In this document: piece by piece, positions 1,658 to 64,000 of the stretch
How the letters are laid out: every line of letters begins with the position of its first letter
Position numbering within the stretch: the stretch's first letter is position 1
DNA from: Deltaproteobacteria bacterium
Lineage (GTDB): Bacteria > Desulfobacterota > Binatia > UBA9968
Length of the DNA: 64,000 nucleotides
Assembly: GCA_016180805.1 (NCBI GenBank)
Contig: JACPAM010000109.1
Location: 734-64,733 of the forward strand
Direction: 5' to 3'
The notes under the pieces: generated by a model
Databases searched by the model: none
What the model saw: only the letters and a program-made list of their open reading frames with translations
What the model was told of the DNA's origin: nothing
Translations under genes and position numbers: made by a program

Positions 1658-1972
1658 CTATGCGGCTATCAGCCCGCAGGCTATGCAGCCTCCCAACTCA
1701 ATCAGAGCCGATCCGCAGGGCTTAAAACCCCGCGGCCTCCTCGATTCAAAACGTGGGTGTAAATCATGGTTGGTGGACAAGTCTATGTCCTTCACCCTGA
1801 GGCGAAGGCATTCCATCAGGCGAAGACCAGCCCCATAGAGGAGCATCGCCATAATCCAGTCCAGCCCTTGAAGCTGGCCGAGAATAGAGCGGACCTCCTC
1901 GTGTGTCAACACCACTGGTAGCCGACGGGCTCTTTTAGCCCCGATCCGAAATAAATTCTGGCCCCTACATGA
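1658..1972 (-). pseudogene. degenerate integron-integrase-like (IntI-family) tyrosine recombinase remnant
   Basis: Minus-strand frame translates [58 protein letters not shown], closely matching the [13 protein letters not shown]....LLYGTGMR..E.L.LRVKDLD block of IntI1. An in-frame TGA (1973-1975) truncates the N-terminal side at the border of a palindromic element. The sequence after VKDIDL shows no integrase similarity. Confidence 0.6.
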
Positions 1973-1980
1973 TCAACTTC

Positions 1981-2014
1981 CCTCTCCCGTCGCGGGAGAG
2001 GGCGAGGGTGAGGG
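1981..2014 (+). repeat. REP-like GC-rich palindromic element (CCTCTCCCG-tcg-CGGGAGAGG followed by GCGAGGGTGAGGG), copy 1
   Basis: Perfect 9-bp inverted repeat seen directly. Near-identical element at 55411-55463. Abuts the stop that truncates the integrase remnant. Confidence 0.6.
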
Positions 2015-2196
2015 CAAATTCCATGCGCACCACCACGAACGACTCCCTGTACGTAGCCAACGTTTTTGAACAAGACCTCGTGGTACAGAAACAAAAGAGG
2101 CCGGATCTCACTTACAGGAACTCGAGAAAGAAGGTTTCTTCGCCGAAATGGCGAAAAAATATCCGACCAAGGGATAAGCCCTCCCAGTGATAGTGG

Positions 2197-4349: not shown

Positions 4350-6509
4350 CTAAGGGCCGCCAGGATGGCTTTCGGAAAGACAGATATTCCGGTAGCCATC
4401 CAAGCGGGCGGAAAACGTCTCAGGGACAAAAAGGGTGGTATCCCGGCGCTCGATCAGTGCCGGACCCAAAACTCGCGCTCCGGGCCAAAGGCGCTCGCCA
4501 TCGTAAACCCGGCACACGATCTCTCGCTCTCCTCTCAGGGTAGCCCGGCGCTCCGATTTCAAGGCGGGCGAGGGATCTTCCGGACCCAATGCCTCCGGCT
4601 TCAACTCAGGCGCACAAGTAGGGCGCAGAGCCTCGAGCCGGAAAGTGATGATTTCGATGGGGGATTCTTTGCGGCTGGTACCCTGCCCGTATTTCCCTTC
4701 GTAGACCGACTCGAAGGCTTCCCGTAGACGCGCGATTCCCGCGGAGTCGATGGCTTCGCGGCTGCATTCGAGGGTCATCTCATGCATCTGGCCCTCGTAG
4801 CGCAGGTCAATCTTCCGGGTGAGGATCACCTGATCCCGGCTGAGGCCCGCGTAGGAGACATCAGCCCAGGCCCGCTCTTCAAGGTCCTGAAAGAGCCGCT
4901 CAAAGTGTTCGATCGTTCCCGGTTGCTCTTCCAGGGGGGTAGGTTCTGACTTCGCATACGTGTAGAGAATATCGGAAGTGGCCACCCCGAAGGCGGAAAA
5001 GACCGAGGCCGTGTAAGGCACCACGATCTGGCGAACGCCCAACGGACGGCTGAAAAGCGCGCAGTGAGCCGGCCCCGCCCCACCGTAGGCGAAAAGCACA
5101 AACTCCCTGGGATCGTAACCGCTCTCCACAGTGACCTTCCGTATCAAGTCGCTCATTTTCGCCGTCACGATCTCATAGATCCCCGCCGCAGCTTCCATGA
5201 GAGATAGCCCCAGAGGCCTGGCAACCTTTTCGGTGATGGCCTCCCGAGCCGCGACTGGATTGAGCCTCTTTCTTCCGCCGAAGAAATAGTCGGGGTCGAG
5301 AAACCCGAGCACTACCAGGGCATCGGTGACAGTGGGCTCCGTGCCGCCGTGCCCGTAACAAGCCGGCCCCGGTTGGGCTCCGGCGCTCTGGGGGCCTACG
5401 TGCAGCCGGCGCCCGTCGCTCCAGGCAATGCTGCCGCCCCCTGCCCCGATGGTCACGACGCGGACCGCCGGGATTTGCACAGGCACGCCCTGGCTGATAA
5501 ACGGGGTGTGCTCCTGCTCGAACTGTCCACGGTAAATGACCCCCACATCAAAGCTCGTCCCCCCCATGTCCGTTGTGATGACGTTGTCAAAGCCGAGGAT
5601 CTTTCCTAGCTGCCTGGCAGCCACAAGACCGCCCACGGGTCCGGAGTTGACCGTAGCCGCCGCTTCCCGCTTCATTTGCTCGGGCAGGGTGAGACCGCCG
5701 GAGCACTTCATGATCTGTACGGGCCGCGTGAGTCCCTCCTGGGCCAGATTCTCCTGAAGCCTGGCGGTATACCGGCTCATGACTGGGCTCAAAAAAGCGT
5801 TCACCACCGTGGTCATACTGCGCTCGAACTCCCCAAGAAGCGGCGACACTTCGCAGGAAAGGTTCACAATCCAGCGGGAGTTGATCTGTCGGGCCATTTC
5901 CCCGAGACGGCGCTCGTGGGTCTCATTGCGGAAGGACCACAGGAGGCAGATAGCCAGGCTCTCGACTCCCCGTTCGGCAAGTTCCTCCAGAGCGGCCCGG
6001 GCGCTTTCCTCGTGTAATGGGGTGACAATCCGGCCGTCCACCCCTACCCGTTCCACGACCCCGCGGATCAGCTCTTTGGGAACAAGGGGCCGGGGCCTCT
6101 CCGTGTGGATGAAGTCCATGGCCTGGCTCACAGGGATGCCAAGATTGCGACCCATAGGGCCACGGCCGACGATAATCACGTCCTCGAACCCTCGGGTGGT
6201 GACCAGCCCCACCCGGGCTCCCCGCTGCTGGATCAAGGCATTAGTGCCGACAGTGGTGCCGTGGCAGAACTGCTCGACCCGACCGAGAACTTCCGAGAGG
6301 GGTCGCTCCACGCCCTCCATGCAGTTCTGCAGTGCGGCGCTCACACCTCGAGAGGGGTCTTCGGGCGTGGAGAGGGCCTTGTCAAACGTGAGCCTGCCGC
6401 GGTCATCGAGCAGTACCACGTCCGTGAAGGTCCCTCCGGTATCGACTCCGATAAACACTCTCACGATCCTTTCCCCATCCTTAAAACGAATGGGTTCTTC
6501 GAACGACAC
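4350..6509 (-). CDS. hyuA: hydantoinase A / 5-oxoprolinase family protein (HyuA-like)
   Basis: 719 aa. N-terminal GVDTGGTFTD motif typical of the hydantoinase/oxoprolinase N-terminal domain. Operon partner of hyuB. Confidence 0.85.
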   Translation of the reverse strand: MSFEEPIRFKDGERIVRVFIGVDTGGTFTDVVLLDDRGRLTFDKALSTPEDPSRGVSAALQNCMEGVERPLSEVLGRVEQFCHGTTVGTNALIQQRGARVGLVTTRGFEDVIIVGRGPMGRNLGIPVSQAMDFIHTERPRPLVPKELIRGVVERVGVDGRIVTPLHEESARAALEELAERGVESLAICLLWSFRNETHERRLGEMARQINSRWIVNLSCEVSPLLGEFERSMTTVVNAFLSPVMSRYTARLQENLAQEGLTRPVQIMKCSGGLTLPEQMKREAAATVNSGPVGGLVAARQLGKILGFDNVITTDMGGTSFDVGVIYRGQFEQEHTPFISQGVPVQIPAVRVVTIGAGGGSIAWSDGRRLHVGPQSAGAQPGPACYGHGGTEPTVTDALVVLGFLDPDYFFGGRKRLNPVAAREAITEKVARPLGLSLMEAAAGIYEIVTAKMSDLIRKVTVESGYDPREFVLFAYGGAGPAHCALFSRPLGVRQIVVPYTASVFSAFGVATSDILYTYAKSEPTPLEEQPGTIEHFERLFQDLEERAWADVSYAGLSRDQVILTRKIDLRYEGQMHEMTLECSREAIDSAGIARLREAFESVYEGKYGQGTSRKESPIEIITFRLEALRPTCAPELKPEALGPEDPSPALKSERRATLRGEREIVCRVYDGERLWPGARVLGPALIERRDTTLFVPETFSARLDGYRNICLSESHPGGP

Positions 6510-6574
6510 GTTGCGCTTGCGGCCCCTCCATCAGCTACGTTCAGCGGTCATTTCTGAAATCAAGAGCACAAGGG

Positions 6575-7615
6575 CTACTGGCAAATCTCTTTCAGGCGCC
6601 CTTCATGCGCGGCGGTCCAGATGCCAACTTCCTTGTAGAATTTGATCGCGCCCGGATGGTAGGGAACCGTAAAGTTGGTAATCGCCTGGGTCTCCTTGGT
6701 CCACCTTTTAAATAGCGGGTGCTTGGTTTGAAGCTCGGCAAGGTTTTCCCACCAGACTTTTACCAAAGAATAAACGGTCCGTTCGCTTACTTTCGTGGAC
6801 GTAACGAGATGAAGCGGATACCCTACGACATAGGTATCCCCCTTTATGCCGGTCGCCGGCGTGGACTTCACTACCAAGGCTCCGTATCTGGCCAGAATAG
6901 CATTGGCTGCGTCAGTATTCGGCAAGCTTAGGAATCGAATCGGCTCCTTTGCATTTGCCTCTTCAACGATACCGATGCCGGGGCCCGTTTGCGCGGCGTC
7001 TATCCTGCCTTCCGCAACCGCCCTCACGCCATCGGGGATGTTTGAAACCCGCACCTGGATGATTTCCGTCGGCTGAACTCCGGTGATCTCCAACATCGCA
7101 GTCTGCCAAATCTGGGTAATCGCATGGCCACCGTAATCCCAGGCCATCCGCTTCCCCTTGAGATCCTTGAATTGCTTAATGTCCGACTTGTCACGGACAA
7201 GGATCGCCACTGTGAACGGGAAAACCCCTCCGGACACCACACGGAGGCCGGGACTCGGCTTCTCGTAGTTACCAGTGCCCGTTTGCGCCATATAGGCATC
7301 GAGGATGTTCATGATGCCAAACTCGATCTCTCCGTTGTGAAGCAACGGAATCCAGGCATTGGGACCGCTGTAAGGCTGGACCCTCACAGAAATGGGCGTC
7401 GCTTTGCTGCCGACCACCGCTAGCCCGCTGCCCAGCGAGTGCGACCCGGTGCCTGCGGGAGGCGTCCCGATCGCCGCGGTGCGGGGGAGATCCTGGCTCG
7501 TATTCGTGACCGGATCGCAGTCGAGCTTGGCCGCCGTCACGGGCGCCGCAAGATAGAGAAAAAGCCCAACCCACATTAACACGAGCCTCCCCATACGACA
7601 CTGCTTCGCCTTCAT
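6575..7615 (-). CDS. TRAP transporter solute receptor, TAXI family (orphan binding protein)
   Basis: Family-typical sequence. Start moved to the internal ATG at 7615 (MKAKQ...), which is preceded by AAAGGAGGAG and followed by a hydrophobic signal peptide. No adjacent TRAP permease. Confidence 0.65.
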   Translation of the reverse strand: MKAKQCRMGRLVLMWVGLFLYLAAPVTAAKLDCDPVTNTSQDLPRTAAIGTPPAGTGSHSLGSGLAVVGSKATPISVRVQPYSGPNAWIPLLHNGEIEFGIMNILDAYMAQTGTGNYEKPSPGLRVVSGGVFPFTVAILVRDKSDIKQFKDLKGKRMAWDYGGHAITQIWQTAMLEITGVQPTEIIQVRVSNIPDGVRAVAEGRIDAAQTGPGIGIVEEANAKEPIRFLSLPNTDAANAILARYGALVVKSTPATGIKGDTYVVGYPLHLVTSTKVSERTVYSLVKVWWENLAELQTKHPLFKRWTKETQAITNFTVPYHPGAIKFYKEVGIWTAAHEGRLKEICQ

Positions 7616-7801
7616 GGCTCCTCCTTTGCCCTTTCCAACTGTTTGCATTGAGATGCCTTTTTTGGACAGAGAGTATCCGACAAGGTGCTTTTGTGTCAAC
7701 TTCGGCACGGCTTGCGGACAGAGCTAGACATTTTCTCCGCCTTGGGGTAATGGGGGATTAAACTAACGGAGTATAGGAACTGGAATGAGAGGTCTAGAAA
7801 G

Positions 7802-8447
7802 ATGGTGAACGACCAAGTGATGCGGTTGTACCCTGTGCCGGGCAAGATCGTGAAGGAATGGATCATCCCGGCCAGGGAATACTCAGCCTTCACCATGCGC
7901 CGGGGGCAAACGTTGCGCTTCGTCGACATGGAGGGCAAACAGGTGCCGGACCTGGTTTGCTTTAACGAGCATGATCTGACCGAGCACATCAACATGGGCA
8001 ACAGCCTCCTTCTCAACAAGCGGCGCGAGCTGAGACAGGGAGACGTGCTCTACTCGGTTATTTGTAATCCAATGATGACGATCGTGGGTTACTCCAACGA
8101 AGAAAGCTACGCCTACGGTCCCATGTGCAGCGAGGAACTAAATCGCATCCGCTACGGGGTGCCGGGCACGCGCAACTGCCGGGACAACTTCGCCATGGCG
8201 CTGGCTCCGTGGGGCTTCAACCAGCGGCAAATTCCCAACGCCTTTGTTCCGTTTATGCGAGTGGAGGTACGGGACCATGGAGATCAAAGAGCCGACCAGT
8301 TGTTCGGGCGACTTCTACGATCTCAGAGCCGAAATGGACTTGCTGGTGGCGGTCTCCAACTGCCCGCAGGAACGCAATCCATGCAATGGATTTAACCCCA
8401 CTGCGACGGGTATTATCATCTATGAGAGCAGTATGGGCGGTAGGTAG
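7802..8447 (+). pseudogene. DUF1989 / urea-carboxylase-associated family protein, frameshifted (+1 shift near 8270-8276 in a G-run)
   Basis: The N-terminal 150 aa (frame of 7802) and the C-terminal portion TMEIKEPTSCSGDFYDLRAEMDLLVAVSNCPQERNPCNGFNP (frame of 8244) both match DUF1989, but lie in different frames. Confidence 0.6.
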
Positions 8448-24936: not shown

Positions 24937-25719
24937 TTATACCCTATACTCGTACCACGGAGCAATCCTGCGCTCCGCGTATTTCAACAGCTCAAACGTC
25001 GTGTAACCTCCGATCGCCAACAGCACCACCCCGACGAATGCGTCGGCTGTTCGGAAGGCCTCCGAGGCCTCCGAGATCAGATAGCCGATTCCCGCCCTGG
25101 AGCCGAAAAACTCGCTCACGATCGCGCCGATGATGGCCCGCCCTACGCTCAAACGAAGGCCGGTCATGAGCAGCGGGAGCGCGCTCGGCACGGTCACCTT
25201 GAAAAATATTTGTCTCCCGGTCCCGCCGAAGGCGCGCACCGCTTCGACCAAGCGACGGTCGACCGTGGTGATACCCGTATACGTGTTGAACAACACGGGG
25301 AAGACCGCACCGATGAAAACGATGGCGATCTTCGAGGCGATGCCGACGCCAAGGGCGGTGATAAAAAGCGGCGCGAGGAGAATAATCGGAGCGTTATAAG
25401 AAATCGTTACCCAAGGATTCAGGATGTCTTTGGCGGTCCGGCTGAGCGCCATCAAAACGCCCAGGCCGATCCCGATCACGACGCCGACCAGATAACCCAG
25501 GATGAATTCGACAAACGTCGCATAGACATGGCGCGCGATCTCACCCCGCGCGAGCAGGTTCATGAAGGCTTCGGCGATCCGCGAAGGCCCGACGAGGATC
25601 AGCGGATTGTCGATGAAGAGGCCATCGACGATGTCCCACGCCACGATCCCCAGGATGACCGACGCGACGGCGTCAACCTTCTTCTCGTTCGCGCGATAGA
25701 TCTGCCTCAGCCATCCCAT
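24937..25719 (-). CDS. ABC transporter permease (SsuC/TauC-type)
   Basis: 260 aa, BPD_transp_1-type profile. Confidence 0.8.
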   Translation of the reverse strand: MGWLRQIYRANEKKVDAVASVILGIVAWDIVDGLFIDNPLILVGPSRIAEAFMNLLARGEIARHVYATFVEFILGYLVGVVIGIGLGVLMALSRTAKDILNPWVTISYNAPIILLAPLFITALGVGIASKIAIVFIGAVFPVLFNTYTGITTVDRRLVEAVRAFGGTGRQIFFKVTVPSALPLLMTGLRLSVGRAIIGAIVSEFFGSRAGIGYLISEASEAFRTADAFVGVVLLAIGGYTTFELLKYAERRIAPWYEYRV

Positions 25720-25721
25720 CG

Positions 25722-26573
25722 TTATTCCATCTCCATGCCGTGGACCTCACGCCGAACCTGATACGCGTACCAGGGAGAAATCCATCCCTGGACTTTGTCT
25801 AGCGCAATGAACGACAGAATGCCGAACACGACCAGAACCACGATCCCGACAAACACCGGGCCGGGCTGAAAGAGCTGAGAATAGAAGTACACCATATACC
25901 CAAGCCCGGCTTCCGCCCCAAACCACTCGGCCACCACCACGCCGATGACGGCGCGACCCACCGCGAGCCGGAGCCCCGCGATGATCGCGGGAGTCGCATC
26001 CGGAATCATAACCTTGAAGAACACCTGGAGCGGCGACCCGCCAAAGGCCCTCACCAGCTCGATGAGATTCTGCCTGACGGATTTGATGCCGGTGTACGTG
26101 TTTAGCAGGATCGGAAAGACGGCCCCGAGGAAGACAATCAGCGCGTTCGGGAAGATCCCCAGCCCAAACCAGACGATGATGATCGGGGCCAGGGCAACGC
26201 GGGGGGTGGCGTAAATGCAGGAGACCCATGGGTCGAGGCAGGTGTTGATCTTTTTTTGCGTCGCCATGAGAAACCCCACGGGGATCCCAACCACGACGGA
26301 CAATACAAATCCGTACGCGAATTCCAGGAGGCTGAAATAAGAGTGCCTGAAAAGCTCTCCGCTTCGATAAAGCTCGCCGAAGGTCTCGATCACCTGAAGC
26401 GGCGAAGCGAGGAAGTGCTGGATCGCATAAGCCTCAAAGTAAGGAGTCCGAGCCAAACCCTCGTAGGCAAGCTGCCAGATGCCGATCCCAACAACCACCG
26501 AGTATATGGCGATCATCCGGGATGAGCGCGCCCAAGCGGGGACACGAGGCTCTGCTTTCGCCACGGTCTTCAC
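25722..26573 (-). CDS. ABC transporter permease (SsuC/TauC-type), second permease
   Basis: The ORF extends to 26828, but a GTG at 26573 overlaps the ATPase TGA (GTGA) and gives a short positively charged N-terminus before TM1. The start is uncertain; the alternative is ATG 26516. Confidence 0.65.
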   Translation of the reverse strand: MKTVAKAEPRVPAWARSSRMIAIYSVVVGIGIWQLAYEGLARTPYFEAYAIQHFLASPLQVIETFGELYRSGELFRHSYFSLLEFAYGFVLSVVVGIPVGFLMATQKKINTCLDPWVSCIYATPRVALAPIIIVWFGLGIFPNALIVFLGAVFPILLNTYTGIKSVRQNLIELVRAFGGSPLQVFFKVMIPDATPAIIAGLRLAVGRAVIGVVVAEWFGAEAGLGYMVYFYSQLFQPGPVFVGIVVLVVFGILSFIALDKVQGWISPWYAYQVRREVHGMEME

Positions 26574-27388
26574 CGCATCCCTTCCTCGCGCTCTCTTCCC
26601 ATGGACTTGAGCACCTCGTCCTGGATGATGCTCCAGACGCGATCGGCGAGATCGAGAAATTCCTTGGTTCTTTTGACGCTCAGCGAACGGGGTCGAGGAA
26701 TGCTCACTTTGACGATCTCTCGGATGGTGGCGGGACGGGCCGAGAACACCACCACCCGGTCCGAGAGGAAAATCGCCTCTTCGATCTGGTGGGTGACGAA
26801 GATCACGGTCTTCCTCGTCTGGTTCCACATCTTTAAGAGCTCGGCTTGCATGATCTCCCGCGTTTGCGCGTCCAACGACGCGAAAGGCTCATCCATGAGG
26901 AGCACCTGCGGGTCAACGATCAGGGCGCGCGCCAGGTTGACGCGCTGCTGCATCCCTCCGGAAAGCTCGTGAGGATAGTGATTCTCAAAACCCGCGAGTC
27001 CCACGAGCGAAATATACCCTCCCGCTTTCCTCCTCGCCTCTCGCGTATCGACTCCCTGAAGCTCGAGGCCCAGAATGACGTTATCCATGACCGTGCGCCA
27101 AGGCAGAAGGGAAGAGTCCTGAAAGACGAACCCCTTGTCCGGGCCGGGCTTGATAACGGTCTTGCCGTCGAGAAGGATCTCTCCATCATCGTGGGAGATG
27201 AGCCCGTCGAGGATGCGCAAAAAAGTCGTCTTCCCGCACCCGCTCGGTCCCACCAGGGAGATGAACTCCGAAGGATGAACCTCCAGAGAAATATCTTCAA
27301 ACACCTGGACCGATTCCTCGGATCTCTGGCTGCGGAAAGCCTTGCGTAAATTGCGCACGACGAGTTTCGATGCAGGAGTTTCCATCAT
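26570..27388 (-). CDS. ABC transporter ATP-binding protein (SsuB/TauB/NitT family)
   Basis: Walker A GPSGCGKTT, signature LSGGMQQR. Confidence 0.85.
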   Translation of the reverse strand: MMETPASKLVVRNLRKAFRSQRSEESVQVFEDISLEVHPSEFISLVGPSGCGKTTFLRILDGLISHDDGEILLDGKTVIKPGPDKGFVFQDSSLLPWRTVMDNVILGLELQGVDTREARRKAGGYISLVGLAGFENHYPHELSGGMQQRVNLARALIVDPQVLLMDEPFASLDAQTREIMQAELLKMWNQTRKTVIFVTHQIEEAIFLSDRVVVFSARPATIREIVKVSIPRPRSLSVKRTKEFLDLADRVWSIIQDEVLKSMGREREEGMR

Positions 27389-57328: not shown

Positions 57329-58282
57329 CTACTTCCCGCCCAGGGACTGCATGAAGGAGCGATCGATGAGGTCGTCGACGGAGACTTTTTTCTTGATCCT
57401 CCCCGCCTCAAATTCCTGCTCGACGACGAGCGAAATCGGTTTTTCGGCGATCTTGCCGTTGACGGGAAAGGACTCCCGGTACTGATCGTAGCCCGCGGGC
57501 GCGTAGGCCGGATCCATCTTCACGTACTTCCGGATCGCCTTCAGGGCGTCCTCTCTGTTTTCCAGCGTATGTTTCACCCCCCTCTGGTAGGCACGCAGAA
57601 ATTTCATGACCTGCCCTTTCTCCCGGGCAAGCCACGACTCGCGCGCCGCGAAGGTCTCGTAAGGCCACTCCGGGAAGATCTCTTTGAGATCGAAGAGTTT
57701 ATTGAAGCCCTGGGCTTTGGCAATCTCGGTGACCGGAAACCACACGATGCTGGCGTCGACCCCGCCCGCCTTAAGGGCGGCAAAGCGCGCCGGCGTGCTG
57801 CCGATCTGAAGGATCGTCACCTCCCTGTGATTGATGCCGAAATGGTGCAGGGTCGCGCGGGTCAGATAGTCCGTCAGGGAGCCAAACCTGCTGATCGCAA
57901 ACCGTTTGCCCTTGGCCTCCTTCATGGACTTGAAGTTCGAAAGCGAGTAGAGCTCAAAGGGCATGAGATTGCAGATTCCCCAGAAGTTTTTTATGTCCAC
58001 GCCTGCCGCCGCCCTGCCCCCGACGGTCTCCACAAACGCGCTGCCCATGATGTTCACGTCTCCGCCAATCAACGCCTGAAGATTTGTCGCTCCGGCGTTA
58101 AACATCACCAGCAAGACGTCAAGCCCTTCGTCCTTAAAAAACCCCTTCTCCTGGGTTACATAAACCGGCAAAAACGCGATGTTCACCGAGGAAAGGCCGA
58201 CGACAATCCTGCTGGTCTGGCCGGCTGCCGGGTAAAGCAGAACCGTAAGAAAACAGAAAACCACCAAACGGAACTTGCGCAT
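57329..58282 (-). CDS. ABC transporter substrate-binding protein, NMT1/SsuA-like, orphan
   Basis: 317 aa with signal peptide. Confidence 0.7.
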   Translation of the reverse strand: MRKFRLVVFCFLTVLLYPAAGQTSRIVVGLSSVNIAFLPVYVTQEKGFFKDEGLDVLLVMFNAGATNLQALIGGDVNIMGSAFVETVGGRAAAGVDIKNFWGICNLMPFELYSLSNFKSMKEAKGKRFAISRFGSLTDYLTRATLHHFGINHREVTILQIGSTPARFAALKAGGVDASIVWFPVTEIAKAQGFNKLFDLKEIFPEWPYETFAARESWLAREKGQVMKFLRAYQRGVKHTLENREDALKAIRKYVKMDPAYAPAGYDQYRESFPVNGKIAEKPISLVVEQEFEAGRIKKKVSVDDLIDRSFMQSLGGK

Positions 58283-58315: not shown

Positions 58316-59347
58316 TCAAATGACCGGCCGCTCGGGCAGGATGCTTTTGAGCACCCTGAGGTAGTTTCCTCCAAGGATTAGCGCAATCTCAGCCTCCTTA
58401 TAGCCGCGCCGGATGAGTCCCTCAATGAGTTTGGGGAGATCCTCCACCTCCTCAAAATCCTTGATCAGCTCGGGCGAGTGAAGCGGATGGTGTTGGTCTT
58501 TGAGCGTGCGCGGTCCGTCGTATTTGACAAAGTCGAGCCCGAGCGCGATATGCTCCACCCCCACGACGTTTACCATATAGTCGAGATGGTTGAGAAGATC
58601 GTCAAGGGCGGCGCCTTTCTTGGTCACACGGGCCGGCAAAGCCAGGATCCCCACCAGCCCGTCCTGGTCCGCGATCGCTTTGATTTGATCGTCCGCGAGG
58701 TTTCGCGGGTTGTCCAGCATCCCGCAAGCGTTCGCGTGGCTCACGATCAAAGGCGCCTGAGCCACCTCCAGAGCCTGAAAGAATCCTTCGCGGTTGATGT
58801 GGGCGAGATCGACAACCATTCCCAGGCGGTTCATCTCCCGGATCACCTCGACCCCAAAGCGCGTCAGCCCGCCTTTAGTGCGGGTCTCCCACACCCCGTC
58901 GCCCAGCTCGTTGCGAAAGTTCCAGGTGAGCTGCATCGAACGAAGACCCAACCGATAAAAATTCCTTAGCTGATGAATGCTCCCCTGAAGCGGCATTCCG
59001 CCTTCGAAGTGAAGCAGGAATGCGATATTGCCGGGGCGGACTCGATCGGAGAGGTCCGCGCGCGTCTTGACGAGCGAGATCATCCCTTCGGACTTGGGGG
59101 CCTCCTCGAGAAACATGTCGATATTTTCCAGCGCGGTCTCCAGATACCTCCCGGTGTTCTGCGAGTGCGAGTAGGAATCGCCGCTGATCGCGTAGACACA
59201 AACATTGATGCCGTCCCGGATCAAGCGCGGGGCGATCGCGTCCCTCAGCGGGTTTTGTTCGCCGACAGAGTGGCGGTAAAGCTGCTCGTAGACGTCGCGA
59301 TGCCCTTCGACGACGACATGGTTCTTAAGAATCTCCCTGGGATCCAT
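58316..59347 (-). CDS. membrane dipeptidase (peptidase family M19)
   Basis: Start ATG 59347 (MDPREILKNHVVVEGHRD) with a GGAGGAAGG SD. Motifs HxD, EG and H..N typical of renal-dipeptidase-like enzymes. Confidence 0.7.
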   Translation of the reverse strand: MDPREILKNHVVVEGHRDVYEQLYRHSVGEQNPLRDAIAPRLIRDGINVCVYAISGDSYSHSQNTGRYLETALENIDMFLEEAPKSEGMISLVKTRADLSDRVRPGNIAFLLHFEGGMPLQGSIHQLRNFYRLGLRSMQLTWNFRNELGDGVWETRTKGGLTRFGVEVIREMNRLGMVVDLAHINREGFFQALEVAQAPLIVSHANACGMLDNPRNLADDQIKAIADQDGLVGILALPARVTKKGAALDDLLNHLDYMVNVVGVEHIALGLDFVKYDGPRTLKDQHHPLHSPELIKDFEEVEDLPKLIEGLIRRGYKEAEIALILGGNYLRVLKSILPERPVI

Positions 59348-59457
59348 CCTTCCTCCGATCGGCCTGACAACAGGTTTTTCAACACCCTGTTGAAGCGCAC
59401 AGATGATTGGGGTACTAATAGCCAGAAAAGCTGTTCCGAAGCAAGTACCCTTCGCCT

Positions 59458-61053
59458 TTGCCACACGCACTGAGAATCGCGGGCCGTTGTGCCCTCGCAC
59501 TTTCGCTAGTCATTCTCTTCATTTCGTGCCGGCCTTCCTCCGAGGTCGCCAGCGACAAGGTTGTCCGCGTCAATCTCGGAACCGAGCCCCCGAGTCTCGA
59601 TTGGTCGGTGGCGACGGACCACGTTTCCTTCAACGTCATTGCCAACCTCATGGTCGGCCTCACCGAGTTCGACCGGGATCTCAAGCCAGGCCCCGTCATC
59701 GCCCGATCCTGGGACGTACTGGAAGGCGGGAAAAGGATCGTCTTTCACCTGCGCGACGACGTTTTGTGGAGCGACGGCAAGAAGGTCCGCGCCCAGGACT
59801 TCGAGTATTCGTGGAAACGGCTGCTCCATCCCAAGACGGCCTCCGAGTACGCTTATATACTGTTCGATATCGTCAACGCGGAAGCTTTCCACCGGGGAAA
59901 GATCGACGATCACCGCCTGCTCGGCGTGACCGCGAAGGATGACCGTACGCTGGAGGTCCGGCTCAGACATCCGGCCTCCTATTTTCTTTCCATCACGACT
60001 TTCGAGGTTACCTATCCTCAGCGGCAAGACATCATCGAGCGATACGGCGCCAAGTGGACCGAGCCGGAGAATATCGTGACCAACGGTCCCTTCCTGCTCG
60101 CATCGTGGAAACACGAGGATGAGATTCAACTGCGGGCCAATCCCCGTTTTTTTCTGGGAAGGCCGGCCATCGAGCGGGTCGACATGTACATGATCAATGA
60201 AAAGACAACCGCGCTCGCCCTCTACGAGCAGGGCCGGCTCGACTTTCTCGACAACCACAGCATACCGATCTTCGAAAAGCCGCGCCTGGTCAAGCACGAA
60301 GGCTTCCGCAGCGTCCCCCAGCTCCGGGGCTACTACTACGGCTTTGTCACGGATCGAAAGCCCTTCGACGACGCGCGGGTGCGCAAGGCTTTTGCGCTCG
60401 CGATCGACCGGACCGTATTTCCCAAGATCCTCCACGGCGGCGAGGAGCCGGCAACCTCCTGGATTCCTCCCGGAATGCTCGCCCATAACGTGGAAATCGG
60501 CGTTCGCTACAATCCCGCGGAGGCGCGAAGACTCCTCAGAGAAGCCGGGTACCCGGACGGCAAAGGATTTCCGCAAGTGACTTTGGGGTATAACACCGAC
60601 GAAGACCACAAGATCGTGGCTGAAGCCATCCAGGGGATGTGGAAGCAAAACCTGGGGGTGCTGGTGCGCCTGGAGAACCAGGAGTGGAAGGTCTATCTGA
60701 GCAAGCTGCAATCCGACCCACCCCACATCTTCCGCCTTGGCTGGGGCGCGGATTTTCCGGATCCCGACAATTTCATGAGACTTTTCACTTCCCTGAGCGG
60801 CAACAATAACACCCGCTGGAAGAATCGACGTTTCGACGAGCTGGTTGACCTGGCCGCCCGGGAGTGGAACACGCAGAAGCGAGTCCAGCTATACAACGAG
60901 GCGCAGAAAATCCTGTGCGAGACCGATCTGCCGATCATCCCGCTGTTTACGACGGCGGAGAGCACCCTCCTACGCCCTCGGTTTGCGGGGCTGGAGTACA
61001 ACTCCATGAGCCGCCTGGTGCTGCGTGATGTGCGCCTGAAAAATAGTCAATAG
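59458..61053 (+). CDS. ABC transporter substrate-binding protein, family 5 (OppA/DppA-like), lipoprotein; TTG start
   Basis: Lipobox LVILFISC and an SBP_bac_5 profile. Confidence 0.75.
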   Translation: MPHALRIAGRCALALSLVILFISCRPSSEVASDKVVRVNLGTEPPSLDWSVATDHVSFNVIANLMVGLTEFDRDLKPGPVIARSWDVLEGGKRIVFHLRDDVLWSDGKKVRAQDFEYSWKRLLHPKTASEYAYILFDIVNAEAFHRGKIDDHRLLGVTAKDDRTLEVRLRHPASYFLSITTFEVTYPQRQDIIERYGAKWTEPENIVTNGPFLLASWKHEDEIQLRANPRFFLGRPAIERVDMYMINEKTTALALYEQGRLDFLDNHSIPIFEKPRLVKHEGFRSVPQLRGYYYGFVTDRKPFDDARVRKAFALAIDRTVFPKILHGGEEPATSWIPPGMLAHNVEIGVRYNPAEARRLLREAGYPDGKGFPQVTLGYNTDEDHKIVAEAIQGMWKQNLGVLVRLENQEWKVYLSKLQSDPPHIFRLGWGADFPDPDNFMRLFTSLSGNNNTRWKNRRFDELVDLAAREWNTQKRVQLYNEAQKILCETDLPIIPLFTTAESTLLRPRFAGLEYNSMSRLVLRDVRLKNSQ

Positions 61054-61095
61054 TTATTGGTCAATAGTCAACGGGTGGGGACGCGACTATTGACG
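61045..61095 (+). promoter_or_regulatory. intercistronic stem-loop / repeat cluster (GTCAATAGT direct repeat; GTCAATAGTC...GACTATTGAC 10-bp inverted repeat, 15-nt loop)
   Basis: Seen directly between the oppA-like stop (61051-61053) and the permease start (61122). No U-run follows. Confidence 0.35.
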
Positions 61096-61121
61096 ATTAA
61101 CCTTTGACCATTGACGACCTC

Positions 61122-62039
61122 ATGGTTCGATTTTTGATCAAACGCCTCCTTCACGCTCTCGTTGTCCTGTGGGTGGTGGCCAGCCTGACCTTTTTCCTTC
61201 TTCATATCACCCCCGGTGGGCCCTTCGATCGTGAGCGACGCCTGCCGCCTGAGGTGCTCGCGAACGTTGCCGCCAAATACCACCTCGATGAGCCCTGGTG
61301 GAACCAATACACTCGCTATTTGACCGGAATCGTTCAGGGGGATCTGGGGCCTTCCTACAAATACCTCGATCGCAATGTGAGGGACATCGTCGCTGATACG
61401 CTTCCGGTCTCGGCCTCGCTCGGCATATTCGCCTTGGGCTTTTCTTTGGCGCTCTCGTTTCCCGTTGGGTTGATTGCCGCCTACTACCGCAACTCCTGGA
61501 CCGACCGCTTCTGCTTGTTTATCGCCACGCTGGGCATATCCGTACCCACTTTTATTCTCGGCGCCCTCCTCATCTGGCTCTTTTCCCTTCAGCTCGGCTG
61601 GTTCCAGGCCGGAAGATGGGGCGACATAAACAGCGCCGTCCTGCCGACAGCGACCCTGGGAGCAGCCCCGGCTGCGTACCTGTCTTATTTGCTTCGCTCC
61701 GCCATACTCGACACGTTGGGTGAAGATTTTGTCCGGACCGCAAGGGCGAAGGGGTTGAAAGAAACCACGGTCCTCTTCAAGCATGCGTTGAGCAACTCGT
61801 TGATCCCGGTTTTGACCGTGCTCGGCCCGCTCACGGCAGGGCTCGTGACCGGCTCCTTCGTCGTCGAGTACGTGTTTGCGATTCCCGGCATGGGGAGGTT
61901 TTTCATCACGGCCGTCACGGACCGCGACTATCCCCTGATCATGGGAGTGACCCTGGTCTACACGGCGCTCCTGGTCGGCGCCAACCTGCTCGTGGACCTG
62001 CTCTACTCTTTCTTCGATCCGCGCATAAAGGCCCAGTAA
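61122..62039 (+). CDS. ABC transporter permease (DppB/OppB-type)
   Basis: Start ATG 61122 (MVRFLIKRLL) with the family profile. Confidence 0.8.
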   Translation: MVRFLIKRLLHALVVLWVVASLTFFLLHITPGGPFDRERRLPPEVLANVAAKYHLDEPWWNQYTRYLTGIVQGDLGPSYKYLDRNVRDIVADTLPVSASLGIFALGFSLALSFPVGLIAAYYRNSWTDRFCLFIATLGISVPTFILGALLIWLFSLQLGWFQAGRWGDINSAVLPTATLGAAPAAYLSYLLRSAILDTLGEDFVRTARAKGLKETTVLFKHALSNSLIPVLTVLGPLTAGLVTGSFVVEYVFAIPGMGRFFITAVTDRDYPLIMGVTLVYTALLVGANLLVDLLYSFFDPRIKAQ

Positions 62040-62044
62040 AGTCT

Positions 62045-62902
62045 ATGAGTCGGCAAAACGAGGCCGAGGAACAACGAAGGCAGAGGGGCCAGCGGGCGCT
62101 CCTGCTTTTGAGCCTCGCTTTTATTGCGGCGGTGACTCTCTGCGGTTTTCTGGCTCCGCTTCTCTCCCCTTACTCCCCCGCCGGGCTCCAGGAGGGTCGC
62201 ATCCTGGAAGGTCCCAGTTGGAGTCACTGGTTGGGAACCGATGGTCTGGGGAGAGATCTCTTTACCCGAATCCTCTACGGCGCACGGGTATCCCTTACGG
62301 TGGGAATCGGCACCGCCCTGATCGCGCTCATCATCGGGAGCCTCTATGGTCTCATCTCGGGTTACAGCGGCGGCCCGTTGGACAGTCTTCTAATGCGCAT
62401 CGTGGATGTCGTTTACAGCCTGCCGGACCTGCTCATCTTCATACTGCTCTCGCTCCTGTTGGGCCGCAACATTGCGGGCGTTCTCCTCGCGCTTGGGCTC
62501 GTGAGCTGGGTGCGCTTTGCCCGAATCGCACGCGGACAGGTCCTTCAGGCCAAGGAGTTTGTTTACGTCGAAGGTGCCAGAGCGATCGGTGCCTCTCATC
62601 TCCGGATCATCATGCGCCACATTCTGCCCAACATTGCGGGCCCCATACTCGTAACTCTGACTTTCAGTATTCCCGCCGCGATCCTGGCTGAGTCCACGTT
62701 GAGCTTTATCGGCCTCGGAATCAACGACCCCTACAGCGAATGGGGCACGAGCTGGGGCACCCTGGCGCAGGATGGCTGGCGCGCGATGCGGACCTATCCG
62801 CACATCATCCTGTTTCCCGGCCTGGCGATCTTCTTCACGATTCTCTCCTTCAACTATCTCGGAAATGGCCTGAGGGACATCCTGGACCCGAAGGGTAAAT
62901 AG
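62045..62902 (+). CDS. ABC transporter permease (DppC/OppC-type)
   Basis: 285 aa with the family profile. No ATPase genes follow. Confidence 0.8.
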   Translation: MSRQNEAEEQRRQRGQRALLLLSLAFIAAVTLCGFLAPLLSPYSPAGLQEGRILEGPSWSHWLGTDGLGRDLFTRILYGARVSLTVGIGTALIALIIGSLYGLISGYSGGPLDSLLMRIVDVVYSLPDLLIFILLSLLLGRNIAGVLLALGLVSWVRFARIARGQVLQAKEFVYVEGARAIGASHLRIIMRHILPNIAGPILVTLTFSIPAAILAESTLSFIGLGINDPYSEWGTSWGTLAQDGWRAMRTYPHIILFPGLAIFFTILSFNYLGNGLRDILDPKGK

Positions 62903-62910
62903 GCAAGCAT

Positions 62911-63219
62911 GTGGCGCGAAAAGAATTCTTCCGACTGCTAGATGATCAGACCCGGTTAAGAGTTTTGGTGATTACCGACCGGGGACGAGTCACAAGATTT
63001 ATGGTTCAGTTGGAAATTTTAATTGAAGGTGCGTGGACCCCTATCGCTCGATATGACACGCACCACGGATTCGCTCACCTCGACATATTGCACCCGGATG
63101 GAAGAGAGGATAAAATCCGATTACTTGCAAAGGATTTTAATGAAGCTTTAGATATCGCCTTCGCCGACCTGCTAACGAATTGGGAGCGTTACGTTAGGAC
63201 TTACCTCAAGGAGCAATGA
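62911..63219 (+). CDS. hypothetical small protein (102 aa), first gene of an AT-rich two-gene cassette
   Basis: Conserved-looking YDTHHGFAHLDI segment. 1-nt gap to the next gene. Confidence 0.4.
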   Translation: MARKEFFRLLDDQTRLRVLVITDRGRVTRFMVQLEILIEGAWTPIARYDTHHGFAHLDILHPDGREDKIRLLAKDFNEALDIAFADLLTNWERYVRTYLKEQ

Positions 63220-63220
63220 G

Positions 63221-63496
63221 ATGAGAAAAAGGGGCTTGGCTTACAAAAACTTGGTGCTAGGCGTAGAGTTCGATAAATACCTGCTGGAACACCCAGAGAT
63301 TGTGGACAGAATCCCAAACAGATCCACCGTGGTCTTGTTGCCGGAGTACGATCAGGAGCTTTACGAGGCAAACCTCAAACTGGCAGAGAAGAGAATTGCC
63401 AAGGGAGAGAAAATAGTTTTCGTCCGCATCCAAAAACTTGCCCCTCTAAAGTCACGGATCATTCGGCCCCGCATCGAACTTGCTGAGTCAGCCTAG
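63221..63496 (+). CDS. hypothetical small protein (91 aa), second gene of the cassette
   Basis: Tight coupling with 62911..63219, lower GC. Confidence 0.4.
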   Translation: MRKRGLAYKNLVLGVEFDKYLLEHPEIVDRIPNRSTVVLLPEYDQELYEANLKLAEKRIAKGEKIVFVRIQKLAPLKSRIIRPRIELAESA

Positions 63497-63909
63497 TCCA
63501 CCCTCACACCAAAGGGATACGGAAAAGGGCTTGTCAGGTTATTTCGAATCGCCTAAAATCACCGGAAATTTAGGGGGATAGAGGGTGATCTGCCGGTGTT
63601 TTTCATTCCTCATCTTTCTGCCCCCATCCTTTAGTTAATGTTGGCCCGGCCAGTCATCGCCGTTTCTAAGATTTAGAAGCCGCGCATGATTACAAGACTT
63701 GACCATCGGGCCCGGATTCTCGGAACTAGACTTTCGGGAAGCCGCTCTCGAACAATTCCGCCAAAATGCCGTGGATCTGAGTGGGGAGAACGAGGAGAAA
63801 TGAACGCCATTCTCAAGGAGCTGGAGGCTACAGGGTTTGCGAAATAGCTCTATAGCGTGCGATAGTTCAGCCGGAAAAAAACAGATCGACAGTCAAAAGG
63901 AGGGGAACA

Positions 63910-64000
63910 TGCCAGTTGTGCAGGTCTACATGTATAAGGGAAAAACGAAAGAACAGAAGAAGGAGTTGGTGAGAAGGATTAGCAAGGATTTTCAAGAGGT
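63910..64000 (+). CDS. tautomerase family protein (4-oxalocrotonate tautomerase-like), 5-prime partial at window end
   Basis: MPVVQVYMYKGKTKEQKKELVRRISKDFQEV with the Pro-1 signature. AAAGGAGGGGA SD 6 nt upstream. Confidence 0.6.

Follow-up and report, generated by a model that had tools for sequence, protein, structure and literature searches.

A mobile DUF7718-DUF5647 gene pair behind an ATPase-less peptide-type ABC operon resembles toxin-first toxin-antitoxin modules

Introduction

In the type II toxin-antitoxin (TA) systems HigBA and MqsRA the toxin gene comes first: a conserved effector is followed by a small neutraliser, translation of the two is coupled, and the systems reside on plasmids and genomic islands. 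The antitoxins HigA and MqsA carry HTH DNA-binding domains, and the toxins are RNases of the RelE fold. On Thermus plasmids, a DUF4160-DUF2442 "Persistence-Enhancing Module" has been described which consists of two tandem small ORFs of 87 and 92 aa with the toxin first; it enhances plasmid persistence and behaves as a TA system, in which introduction of the first ORF requires the second (Murayama et al. 2025, PMC12724237). The small toxin TumE of the TumE-TumA system (DUF6516) has an alpha+beta structure that includes an antiparallel sheet, and it has no relatives in the PDB; its toxicity was shown experimentally and it is bicistronic with diverse, unrelated partners (Durairaj et al. 2023, PMC10584680). 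Here we describe a pair of small genes in the window, that is, the whole stretch of 64,000 nucleotides that was analysed. In our best reading the pair behaves like an uncharacterised TA module that is widespread, mobile and plasmid-borne, and we put the probability that it is a genuine TA or addiction module at roughly 55 %.

Results

The gene pair and its junction

The pair comprises the following features:

62911..63219, + strand, DUF7718 gene, 102 aa, GTG start, proposed toxin (ORF and Pfam PF24839)
63221..63496, + strand, DUF5647 gene, 91 aa, ATG start, proposed antitoxin (ORF and Pfam)
63208..63223, + strand, translational-coupling junction of AAGGAG Shine-Dalgarno sequence, TGA, 1-nt gap and ATG

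A preliminary description of this DNA had reported a low-GC cassette of two genes (102 and 91 aa, 1-nt spacing) with TA-like architecture and, indeed, the ORFs are as described and the two small genes are co-directional. The Shine-Dalgarno sequence AAGGAG (63208-63213) lies inside the 3' end of the DUF7718 gene, whose TGA (63217-63219) is separated by 1 nt from the ATG of the DUF5647 gene at 63221. There is no terminator in between, and the two adjacent small genes thus share one transcription/translation unit, as type II TA genes do. In relatives from other phyla the junction has the form of a 1-nt gap or a 4-nt start/stop overlap. The GC content of the pair is 48.0 % compared to 58.6 % in the remaining window, a difference of ~10 points, and GC3 amounts to 49 % for the DUF7718 gene and 61 % for the DUF5647 gene, compared to 73-76 % for the opp genes upstream. 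Judged by their sequences, both small ORFs are real genes and not chance ORFs, since they match Pfam families, have dozens of homologues at 60-85 % identity and, with dN/dS values of 0.07-0.15 over both genes and no internal stops, are under purifying selection.

The DUF7718 protein matched PF24839 with 114.1 bits (E = 3.3e-33; Pfam gathering cut-off, 25 bits), and residues 1-101 covered positions 1-101 of the 104 positions of the profile, a membership with nearly full-length coverage in a family that comprises about 900 clusters when grouped at 50 % identity. Homologues have 102 aa as well, with an ATG at the same start position, and dN/dS was 0.07-0.14. In public gene calls for this lineage the protein starts at an internal ATG and, with 72 aa, is too short, because the start codon is GTG; an exact-sequence look-up of the 102-aa protein gave no match, since the public calls begin at that internal ATG. 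The AF2 model (pLDDT 93) predicts six beta strands followed by a C-terminal helix. The signature motif of the family is located as follows:

63049..63084, + strand, DUF7718 signature motif, codons R47-D58 (RYDTHHGFAHLD), from the alignment

A block in the first protein that had looked conserved from the sequence turned out to be the most conserved motif of the DUF7718 family (YDTHHGFAHLD, 63052-63084). In an alignment of 16 sequences from Deltaproteobacteria, Chloroflexi, Nitrospirota, Planctomycetes, Thermus and Synechococcus, R47, D49 and H56 never vary, and Y48, T50 and D58 hardly do. The motif maps to the beta4/beta5 hairpin of the AF2 model, and the invariant constellation of the protein is R17/E35/R47/D49/H56.

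The second protein is alpha/beta and was assigned to DUF5647 (PF18882, E = 1.9e-23) by a score above the gathering cut-off of 27 bits and by the fold of TTHC002, a DUF5647 member of solved structure (PDB 2DBS) that is encoded on plasmid pTT8 of Thermus thermophilus HB8. This structure has been in the PDB since 2006 as a structural-genomics "hypothetical protein". Unlike the pair in the window, TTHC002 is an orphan, with its upstream DUF7718 gene cut down to the C-terminal helix. Neither Pfam nor the fold revealed a DNA-binding fold of the RHH, HTH or AbrB type in DUF5647 and, therefore, classical autoregulation is not evident. Some validated TA systems are without a DNA-binding, autoregulating antitoxin. 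Since DUF5647 has a basic isoelectric point in this clade but an acidic one elsewhere, a comparison of the two families by isoelectric point is uninformative.

Searches for known systems

Neither protein had a meaningful match to known toxin, antitoxin or defence models in Pfam, NCBIfam, PADLOC and PHROGs; in particular, neither matched any of the 5,027 defence models of PADLOC-DB v2 at E up to 1, and no match turned up in a tblastn search of 50,697 phage records. Searches of PDB sequences with single sequences and profiles returned chance matches only, and a full-text literature search on DUF7718, DUF5647, their Pfam accessions and TTHC002 gave nothing relevant. The preliminary description had named DUF4160/DUF2442 as a candidate pairing. 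This identity did not hold: the Pfam families are DUF7718/DUF5647, Pfam gave no match to the candidate pair at E up to 1, and profile-profile probabilities were 0.3-2.6 % (hhalign, 0.8-2.6 % for DUF7718 against eight real DUF4160 sequences and 0.25 % for DUF5647 against DUF2442). An identity of DUF7718 with TumE/DUF6516 (PF20126) was rejected as well, with no Pfam match and hhalign probabilities of 0.3-1.0 % against an alignment of 20 TumE sequences. The best local hhalign alignments with DUF4160, DUF2442 and TumE, none of them significant, pair Y-D-x-x-H loops, which is a lead and not evidence.

Pairing and distribution

DUF5647 was encoded directly downstream of an intact DUF7718 gene in 28 of 33 instances, some of which are closely related, and the two genes were always separated by 1 nt or joined by a start/stop overlap. 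The pair is spread over about nine bacterial phyla, with hosts among Deltaproteobacteria, Chloroflexi, Nitrospirota, Planctomycetes, Deinococcota and Cyanobacteria, and DUF7718 also occurs on haloarchaeal plasmids. Cryptic Thermus plasmids of about 8-16 kb carry the pair in up to three copies within 8 kb: on pTT8, a single intact pair accompanies TTHC002 with its DUF7718 remnant, and pHB5008c (7,984 bp) has two intact pairs and one remnant. The plasmid-borne pairs of Thermus adjoin RelE/ParE, DUF2442 and DUF2283 genes; the DUF2442 gene was found beside them on pHB5008c and pTF62 and, on pHB5008c, is preceded by a C-terminal remnant of DUF4160. Elsewhere, TumE + HVO_A0114, Mrr, SUKH, TIR, AbiJ and RHH-PemK genes are neighbours (in locus L052 the TumE + HVO_A0114 pair follows directly), and the neighbourhoods are unrelated among loci.

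In five or six copies that are degenerate or orphaned, the DUF5647 gene is still intact, and DUF7718 is either missing or has only its C-terminal helix left: pTT8 TTHC002, the third copy on pHB5008c, the P0054 group, the P0042 group, P0070 and L136. The orphan DUF5647 copies of Thermus share their plasmid with an intact pair, an arrangement that is compatible with the reverse polarity, too. Conversely, DUF7718 was found with unrelated small downstream partners in L029, in L024 and on haloarchaeal plasmids. Among distant homologues, DUF7718 has retained more similarity than DUF5647 (2e-30 versus 3e-10 in L018, for example). Within the close clade, DUF5647 is the better conserved of the two (82 % versus 73 % for DUF7718 in L038), an unusual pattern for an antitoxin. 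In L027 the partners are naturally fused into one ORF, a hint that they interact physically.

The upstream ABC operon

The pair lies at the 3' end of an operon with the following genes:

59458..62902, + strand, ATPase-less peptide-type ABC operon with the pair at its 3' end (Pfam)
59458-61053, + strand, SBP_bac_5 binding protein
61104-62039, + strand, BPD_transp_1 permease (oppB)
62045-62902, + strand, BPD_transp_1 permease (oppC)

A complete Opp/Dpp operon encodes a binding protein, two permeases and two ATPases with ABC_tran and oligo_HPY domains. Here the binding protein and the two permeases are intact and no ATPase gene follows, as the preliminary description had stated; OppD/F-type ATPases were not found anywhere in the 64-kb window, the sole ABC ATPases of which are of the Liv type and the nitrate/sulfonate type. 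That description had further placed the cassette where oppDF should be and had taken the transporter to be inactivated. Orthologous operons speak against both. Eighty loci with OppC identities of 71-85 % were fetched, and an OppD/F gene was found next to oppC in none of the 56 that extend at least 1 kb downstream; two opposite-strand ABC ATPases at orthologous loci both lack the oligo_HPY domain. As far as the contigs reach, the 80 metagenomic loci share the order NMT1-SBP, M19 dipeptidase, SBP5, oppB, oppC, a variable segment and rhodanese-ThiF, and at empty sites the conserved rhodanese-ThiF gene follows oppC after 140-220 nt. Since the 56 operons without OppD/F include such empty sites, the ATPase-less layout predates the insertion. 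Further, pN/pS values of 0.13-0.26 for oppB/oppC, across lineages that all lack adjacent ATPases, demonstrate purifying selection. The ATPase-less operon of binding protein and two permeases is a conserved, selected state and does not signal disruption; it is presumably served by ATPases that are encoded elsewhere.

Insertion site and mobility

The boundaries of the inserted DNA are marked by the following features:

62903..62910, + strand, left boundary of the inserted/variable DNA, 8 nt from the oppC stop to the GTG (end of homology)
63497..63909, no strand, spacer of 413 nt with 50 % GC, belonging to the lineage-specific variable segment and outside the conserved pair
63910..64000, + strand, 5' part of a tautomerase-family gene (64 aa, runs past the window) in the variable segment

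Compared with pair-less relatives, the sequence is homologous as far as the oppC stop codon, and homology restarts only about 15 nt ahead of the rhodanese-ThiF start; among pair-bearing loci homology ends at the stop codon of DUF5647. The pair occupies an insertion hot spot which starts at the oppC stop codon. Strain-level presence and absence is documented by L040, which has the pair, and L041 and L045, which lack it and are 99.3 and 99.2 % identical to L040 over a stretch of 2,789 nt ending at the oppC stop. In every chromosomal locus the GC content of the pair is 3-17 points below that of its flanks. Repeats flanking the window copy, direct or inverted, were short, chance-level matches only. 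Since DUF7718 starts 8 nt past oppC, there is no room for a promoter of its own, and neither a promoter-like nor a terminator-like site was found between oppC and the pair, which is probably transcribed by read-through from the opp operon.

The AT-rich spacer and the tautomerase gene behind it, both noted before, are present, with the gene starting at 63910. The spacer has one promoter-like site (63531-63559), within chance expectation, and no Rfam families or tRNAs were found in it. The complete tautomerase gene is present in L001-L006 and belongs to the 4-oxalocrotonate-tautomerase family (Pfam Tautomerase, E = 1.5e-14); a tautomerase between oppC and rhodanese-ThiF was not detected in 80 related loci.

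Discussion

With presence and absence among near-identical strains, several copies on Thermus plasmids of 8-10 kb, unrelated neighbourhoods and locations in TA/defence islands, the pair has the patchy distribution on plasmids and islands that is typical of mobile type II TA systems, and we consider it very probable that DUF7718-DUF5647 is a mobile accessory two-gene module, in agreement with the small mobile or addiction module suggested previously. We propose a self-contained, horizontally mobile bicistronic module which is most likely a type-II-like addiction pair. DUF7718 and DUF5647 are translated in a coupled manner, as the anatomy of the junction shows; DUF5647 would bind and neutralise DUF7718; and DUF7718, a small beta-sheet protein, would when freed harm an essential process, with RNA or translation as possible targets if TumE is taken as a guide. 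Besides its mobility, the constant pairing across phyla, the purifying selection on both genes, the fusion ORF of L027 and the precedent of the DUF4160-DUF2442 module favour this reading. Points against it are that neither protein matches known toxin, antitoxin or defence models, that DUF5647 shows no DNA-binding fold, that the window copy has no promoter-like site ahead of it, and that DUF5647 is the better conserved protein in the close clade.

The surroundings of the pair allow two other readings. That the cassette replaced oppD/oppF and thereby inactivated the peptide transporter could be suspected from the missing ATPase gene after oppC and from the Liv- or nitrate/sulfonate-type nature of the ABC ATPases in the 64 kb, but this is highly improbable: OppD/F is absent from all 56 loci, empty sites link oppC to rhodanese-ThiF within 140-220 nt, and the insertion starts past the stop codon of an oppC that, like oppB, is intact and under purifying selection. 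Hardly more credible is a housekeeping accessory of nearby genes for peptide or amide hydrolysis, for instance as a chaperone or regulator that serves the M19 dipeptidase/opp system. Amidohydro_1, Amidase, FmdA_AmdA and Hydantoinase_A genes do adjoin the pair in several metagenomic contigs, the operon here includes the M19 dipeptidase, and the pair is probably co-transcribed with opp; these neighbours, however, vary by locus, and the pair also resides on cryptic Thermus plasmids without such metabolism and has a GC content foreign to its hosts. Because the neighbours are not homologous to each other and most orthologous opp operons, near-identical strains included, lack the pair, we reject a link to amide hydrolases.

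Given a TA module, DUF7718 is likely the toxin. This polarity is deduced from the decayed copies, which keep DUF5647, from the exchange of partners by DUF7718 and from its better conservation at long range. The opposite assignment, with DUF7718 as antitoxin in the canonical antitoxin-first order and DUF5647 as toxin, appears unlikely. Somewhat more weight, still well short of the TA reading, is due to a mobile module that does not serve post-segregational killing, such as an anti-phage or abortive-infection sensor-effector pair, a device by which small plasmids bring about exclusion or incompatibility, or a pair of small regulators on mobile DNA. Neighbours such as TIR, AbiJ_NTD4, Mrr_cat, SUKH and TumE would suit this, two to three copies on one 8-kb plasmid would be redundant for simple addiction, and DUF5647 is without a DNA-binding antitoxin domain. 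However, there were 0 matches to the 5,027 PADLOC models, the pair is absent from the 50,697 phage records, and loss of the first gene with retention of the second, together with partner swapping, fits a toxin/antidote logic. Since many defence TA systems share this logic, such a function overlaps with the addiction module favoured here.

If the TA module is genuine, a new family of about 900 clusters with two unexplained folds would be added, a function would be assigned to the orphan structure 2DBS, several ORFs of the widely used plasmid pTT8 would be explained and, like the DUF4160/DUF2442 module, the pair could become a plasmid-stabilising tool for the genetics of thermophiles. More tentatively, and with a chance that we place below even, DUF7718-DUF5647 may be an unrecognised TA family whose toxin and antitoxin folds are unrelated to those of validated systems, which is present in bacteria and, via DUF7718, in haloarchaea, and which inserts recurrently at the 3' end of oppC while regenerating its last ~95 nt. 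If true, this regeneration would suggest that very small modules move by a cassette-like, integrase-in-trans or Campbell-type mechanism. For annotation, the locus teaches that a low-GC cassette beside an ATPase-less operon is not evidence of gene replacement.

Compared with the systems described so far, DUF7718-DUF5647 resembles HigBA and MqsRA in gene order, coupling and plasmid/island setting; neither an HTH domain nor a RelE fold, as in these systems, was seen. The "YDN..-KGDHRH" loop of TumE resembles "YDTHHGFAHLD" of DUF7718, but TumE is predominantly encoded downstream of its partner and DUF7718 upstream. DUF5647, being alpha/beta, differs from DUF2442 and is not a DUF2442-type domain. 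With the DUF4160-DUF2442 module, the pair has in common the two tandem small ORFs and the occurrence on small Thermus plasmids; likewise, the first protein of that module is rich in beta structure and has a loop with His, and its C-terminal helix ends in an NW motif.

Two small genes directly 3' of oppC

The window stems from a groundwater MAG of a 'Deltaproteobacteria bacterium' (locus tag HYT78_06600). The ORF call placed two small genes (102 and 91 aa, 1 nt apart) exactly where the preliminary description had seen them, the first starting 8 nt after the oppC stop codon (62902), and the AT-rich spacer and tautomerase gene described behind them were found as well.

Features around the pair in the window
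58316-59500, minus strand: M19 dipeptidase (Pfam), upstream of the pair
59458-61053: SBP_bac_5 binding protein (Pfam)
61104-62039 and 62045-62902: two BPD_transp_1 permeases, oppB and oppC (Pfam)
62911-63219, plus strand: DUF7718 gene, 102 aa, GTG start (ORF call)
63208-63213, plus strand: AAGGAG ribosome-binding site, inside the 3' end of the DUF7718 gene
63221-63496, plus strand: DUF5647 gene, 91 aa (ORF call)
63497-63909: AT-rich spacer of 413 nt, downstream of the pair
from 63910 (63910-64000 inside the window): tautomerase-family gene, 64 aa

A rhodanese-ThiF gene follows beyond the window end, as seen in contigs with an identical DUF5647 protein and the same gene order. On the other side, the M19 dipeptidase gene is adjoined by a gene for an NMT1/THI5-type binding protein (57329-58282, minus strand), an adjacency that recurs in relatives with enough upstream contig; a nitrate/sulfonate-type ABC system with two permeases and an ATPase (24937-27388, minus strand) lies ~30 kb from it. 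The low GC content reported before was confirmed: across 62900-63950 the GC profile of the window drops from ~0.59 to 0.47-0.50, and the pair has 48.0 % GC versus 58.6 % in the remaining window. Third-position GC is 49 % in the DUF7718 gene and 61 % in the DUF5647 gene versus 73-76 % in the transporter genes. Neither a promoter-like nor a terminator-like signal was found between oppC and the pair in the window.

The first product belongs to Pfam family DUF7718 (PF24839; E 3.3e-33, profile positions 1-101 of 104) and the second to DUF5647 (PF18882; E 1.9e-23); NCBIfam, PADLOC and PHROGs gave no match for either protein. In a full-text literature search DUF7718, DUF5647 and TTHC002, the DUF5647 protein of the Thermus thermophilus HB8 plasmid pTT8 (structure 2DBS), were mentioned nowhere, and both families are so far catalogued as DUFs only. 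Public gene calls use an internal ATG and give a 72-aa DUF7718 (window 62911-63219; 5223-5441 in the related locus L001). The Pfam profile and the homologues cover the GTG-start form from residue 1, and since nearly all homologues have 102 aa with an ATG at the equivalent position, the GTG start is correct and the 72-aa product a truncation.

Searched with the family profile, 1.84 billion cluster representatives yielded 927 DUF7718 clusters at E <= 1e-3, nearly all of them stand-alone proteins 100-110 aa long. Five residues, R17, E35, R47, D49 and H56, do not vary in a diverse alignment, and Q33, Y48, T50 and D58 vary hardly at all; judged from strand register, R17, R47, D49, H56 and D58 would share one sheet face. 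Purifying selection on both genes is strong: dN/dS against six relatives is 0.07-0.15 (with synonymous sites almost saturated), and the reading frames contain no internal stop.

The transporter operon has no adjacent ATPase genes

The preliminary description had placed the cassette where oppDF should be and had considered the transporter probably inactivated. A metagenome scan with OppC yielded 80 loci (71-85 % identity) with a widely conserved order of NMT1-type binding protein, M19 dipeptidase, SBP5, oppB, oppC, variable segment and rhodanese-ThiF. At 56 loci the sequence extends 1 kb or more past oppC; not one of these, empty sites included, encodes an ABC ATPase in the orientation of the operon, and none has intact oppDF at this position; the two ATPases on the opposite strand both lack the oligo_HPY domain of OppD/F. 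In L060, L080, L084, L097, L105, L109, L111, L113 and L114 only 140-240 nt separate oppC from rhodanese-ThiF; other loci carry 0.5-4.5 kb of varied cargo there. Furthermore, purifying selection acts on oppB and oppC (pN/pS 0.13-0.26 across these lineages), both of which are intact; this speaks against inactivation. Because relatives lack adjacent ATPases, empty sites are short and oppB/oppC are under selection, the ATPase-less layout is ancestral and maintained, and that the cassette replaced oppDF, as the missing ATPase genes had suggested, is barely tenable. The sole ABC ATPases of the window belong to Liv-type and nitrate/sulfonate-type systems, each with its own permeases. Some ABC importers share ATPases encoded elsewhere, and by analogy ATPases acting in trans probably power this transporter.

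The pair is inserted at a hot spot and enriched on plasmids

Between the window lineage and its empty-site relatives homology ends at the oppC stop and restarts ~15 nt before rhodanese-ThiF; therefore, pair, spacer and tautomerase gene, 1.37 kb in all, are variable. Spacer (63497-63909) and tautomerase gene were found between oppC and rhodanese-ThiF in 0 of 80 related loci; they are lineage-specific, and the variable segment of the window is larger than the pair. In the pair-bearing loci L038, L052, L063 and L110 homology ends exactly at the DUF5647 stop codon, so the unit common to pair-bearing loci is the pair alone. Over the 2,789 nt that end at the oppC stop, L040, which has the pair, matches L041 and L045, which do not, at 99.3 % and 99.2 % identity, and at every chromosomal locus the GC content of the pair is 3-17 points below its flanks. 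At five loci the final ~60-95 nt of oppC recur 3' of the inserted DNA, with 75-80 % identity between the copies.

Repeated oppC 3' ends (first copy; second copy)
L052: 2014-2108; 2719-2813 (~95 nt, 80 % identical; bracket the pair exactly)
L039: 6729-6788; 8000-8059 (second copy behind a KaiC-like gene)
L041: 6695-6788; 7915-8007 (second copy behind a KaiC-like gene)
L044: 2688-2781; 3908-4000 (second copy behind a KaiC-like gene)
L045: 6695-6782; 7980-8067 (second copy behind a KaiC-like gene)

This suggests recurrent insertions into the oppC 3' end which regenerated the reading frame. No recombinase or integrase was seen at these loci, and no such repeat surrounds the window copy. In L052 (2873-5115) genes for a TumE toxin (PF20126) and an HTH protein (HVO_A0114) come directly after the pair; a SUKH/SMI1 protein and a restriction endonuclease of the Mrr_cat type are encoded behind them. 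Cargo here and at other DUF5647 sites comprises TumE with HTH, SUKH, Mrr_cat, TIR, AbiJ_NTD4 and RHH-PemK; the oppC-rhodanese/ThiF junction is a hot spot for toxin-antitoxin (TA) and defence islands. A KaiC-like ATPase gene (opposite strand) and a small cytochrome c gene also occur in the variable gap of close relatives (L038, 4955-7875; L039, L041 and L045, 6885-8567), as does, in L038, a gene for a PKD-domain protein.

The pair is enriched on plasmids. A tblastn search of 72,556 plasmids found DUF7718 on twelve small Thermus plasmids, haloarchaeal plasmids and one Synechococcus plasmid; phage records gave no match to the pair. On the 9.3-kb plasmid pTT8 lie an intact pair (7333-7928) and, as second DUF5647, TTHC002, pTF62 carries two pairs, and pHB5008c (L033, 7,984 bp) has two intact pairs in divergent orientation plus a third remnant (1856-3736, 6172-6563). 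The two pHB5008c pairs are separated by a DUF2442 gene and the C-terminal remnant of a DUF4160 gene (2542-2652). RelE/ParE with DUF6290, DUF2442 and DUF2283 are encoded on the same Thermus plasmids. Of the small mobile or addiction module proposed earlier, mobility is thus very likely, as L040 versus L041/L045 and the plasmids indicate; addiction is our inference.

Partners of DUF7718 and assignment of the putative toxin

The two genes form a bicistronic, translationally coupled unit: DUF5647 lies directly 3' of DUF7718 in 28 of 33 instances (intact DUF7718 with readable downstream sequence, mutually close relatives included), with a 1-nt gap or a start/stop overlap of 4-8 nt in relatives. Hosts are Deltaproteobacteria/Syntrophobacteraceae, four lineages of Chloroflexi, Nitrospirota, Planctomycetia, Thermus and Synechococcus; further copies come from a Cloacimonadota contig that is truncated and from Omnitrophica and Latescibacterota, in the latter two with other partners. 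In a single ORF of a Candidatus Omnitrophica MAG (L027, 6378-6776), DUF7718 (profile position 27 onwards) is continuous with the C-terminal half of DUF5647; this natural fusion or decayed copy hints at an interaction of the two proteins. In L029 and L024 (7587-7910) DUF7718 is followed by an unrelated 72-77 aa protein instead (~3790-4010 and ~7910-8140). These proteins are mutually homologous, belong to no Pfam family, share the motif F-x-RLP-x2-EFEL-x-FD-x2-G-x-IY-x-DG-x-P-x-G-x-NV and appear to be an alternative partner. Strong DUF7718 members on haloarchaeal plasmids (E 1e-30) precede overlapping ORFs of 45 and 65 aa.

Degenerate copies decay asymmetrically, DUF7718 being lost and DUF5647 retained. 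Only DUF7718 profile positions ~72-102 remain ahead of an intact DUF5647 at TTHC002 (the C-terminal helix), in the third pHB5008c copy and in the P0054 group (L133-L135, L137, L138); DUF7718 is missing entirely in the P0042 group (L125-L132), P0070 (L139) and L136. In L125-L132 (e.g. L129, 815-1417) the intact orphan DUF5647 after oppC stands behind a DUF6722-like protein of 68 aa and a strongly hydrophobic 35-aa peptide (MTPATALTVVFLLFLVIGLIGLFIVLTDKGLKWRK), which may be a different toxin partner, and ahead of DUF6933, TIR and AbiJ_NTD4 genes.

DUF7718 is the constant partner, the second gene being swapped in L029, L024 and the haloarchaeal plasmids, and is better conserved over long range than DUF5647 (2e-30 versus 3e-10 in L018; 5e-29 versus 4e-13 in L023). 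Because of asymmetric decay, partner swapping and long-range conservation, DUF7718 is, given a toxin-antidote function, probably the toxin. Against this counts that within the close clade DUF5647 is the more conserved protein and that the Thermus DUF5647 orphans share their plasmid with an intact pair. The reverse polarity, DUF5647 as toxin and DUF7718 as antitoxin, is unlikely. The defence genes nearby and the multiple copies on one plasmid leave some room for a function other than addiction, e.g. defence or plasmid exclusion, which we regard as a minority possibility. The role of a housekeeping accessory is very improbable for a pair present or absent between near-identical loci. For a true toxin-antidote function, of which we infer toxicity, binding and target alike, we estimate a probability of roughly 55 %. 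Transcription of the pair probably runs through from the opp operon or starts within it. As a toxin-antidote pair, DUF5647 would bind and neutralise DUF7718, and free DUF7718 would inhibit growth via its conserved Arg/Asp/His face, possibly acting on RNA or translation by analogy with TumE.

Comparison with validated toxin-antitoxin systems

A DUF4160-DUF2442 pair on Thermus plasmids was shown in 2025 to enhance plasmid persistence, and a construct without the second ORF cannot be introduced, a TA-like behaviour (PMC12724237). The preliminary description had named these families as candidates, but the Pfam assignments are DUF7718/DUF5647, and comparison with profiles of eight DUF4160 and nine DUF2442 plasmid sequences gave, with shallow alignments, probabilities of 0.8-2.6 % for DUF7718 as DUF4160 and 0.25 % for DUF5647 as DUF2442. 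The TumE-TumA system (DUF6516), a validated TA that acts on translation, has as its toxin a small sheet-plus-helix protein with varied partners and no PDB relatives (PMC10584680); compared by hhalign with an alignment of 20 TumE sequences, DUF7718 reached a probability < 1 %, again with shallow alignments. The best local alignments of DUF7718 with both DUF4160 and TumE pair their Y-D-x-x-H loops, without significance. If validated, the pair would represent a TA family in which both folds are new; it would be of moderate interest for the biology of plasmids and TA systems and of use in Thermus genetics. In sum, on present evidence the pair appears to work like both DUF4160-DUF2442 and TumE-TumA and is, at the level of profile comparison, a member of neither.
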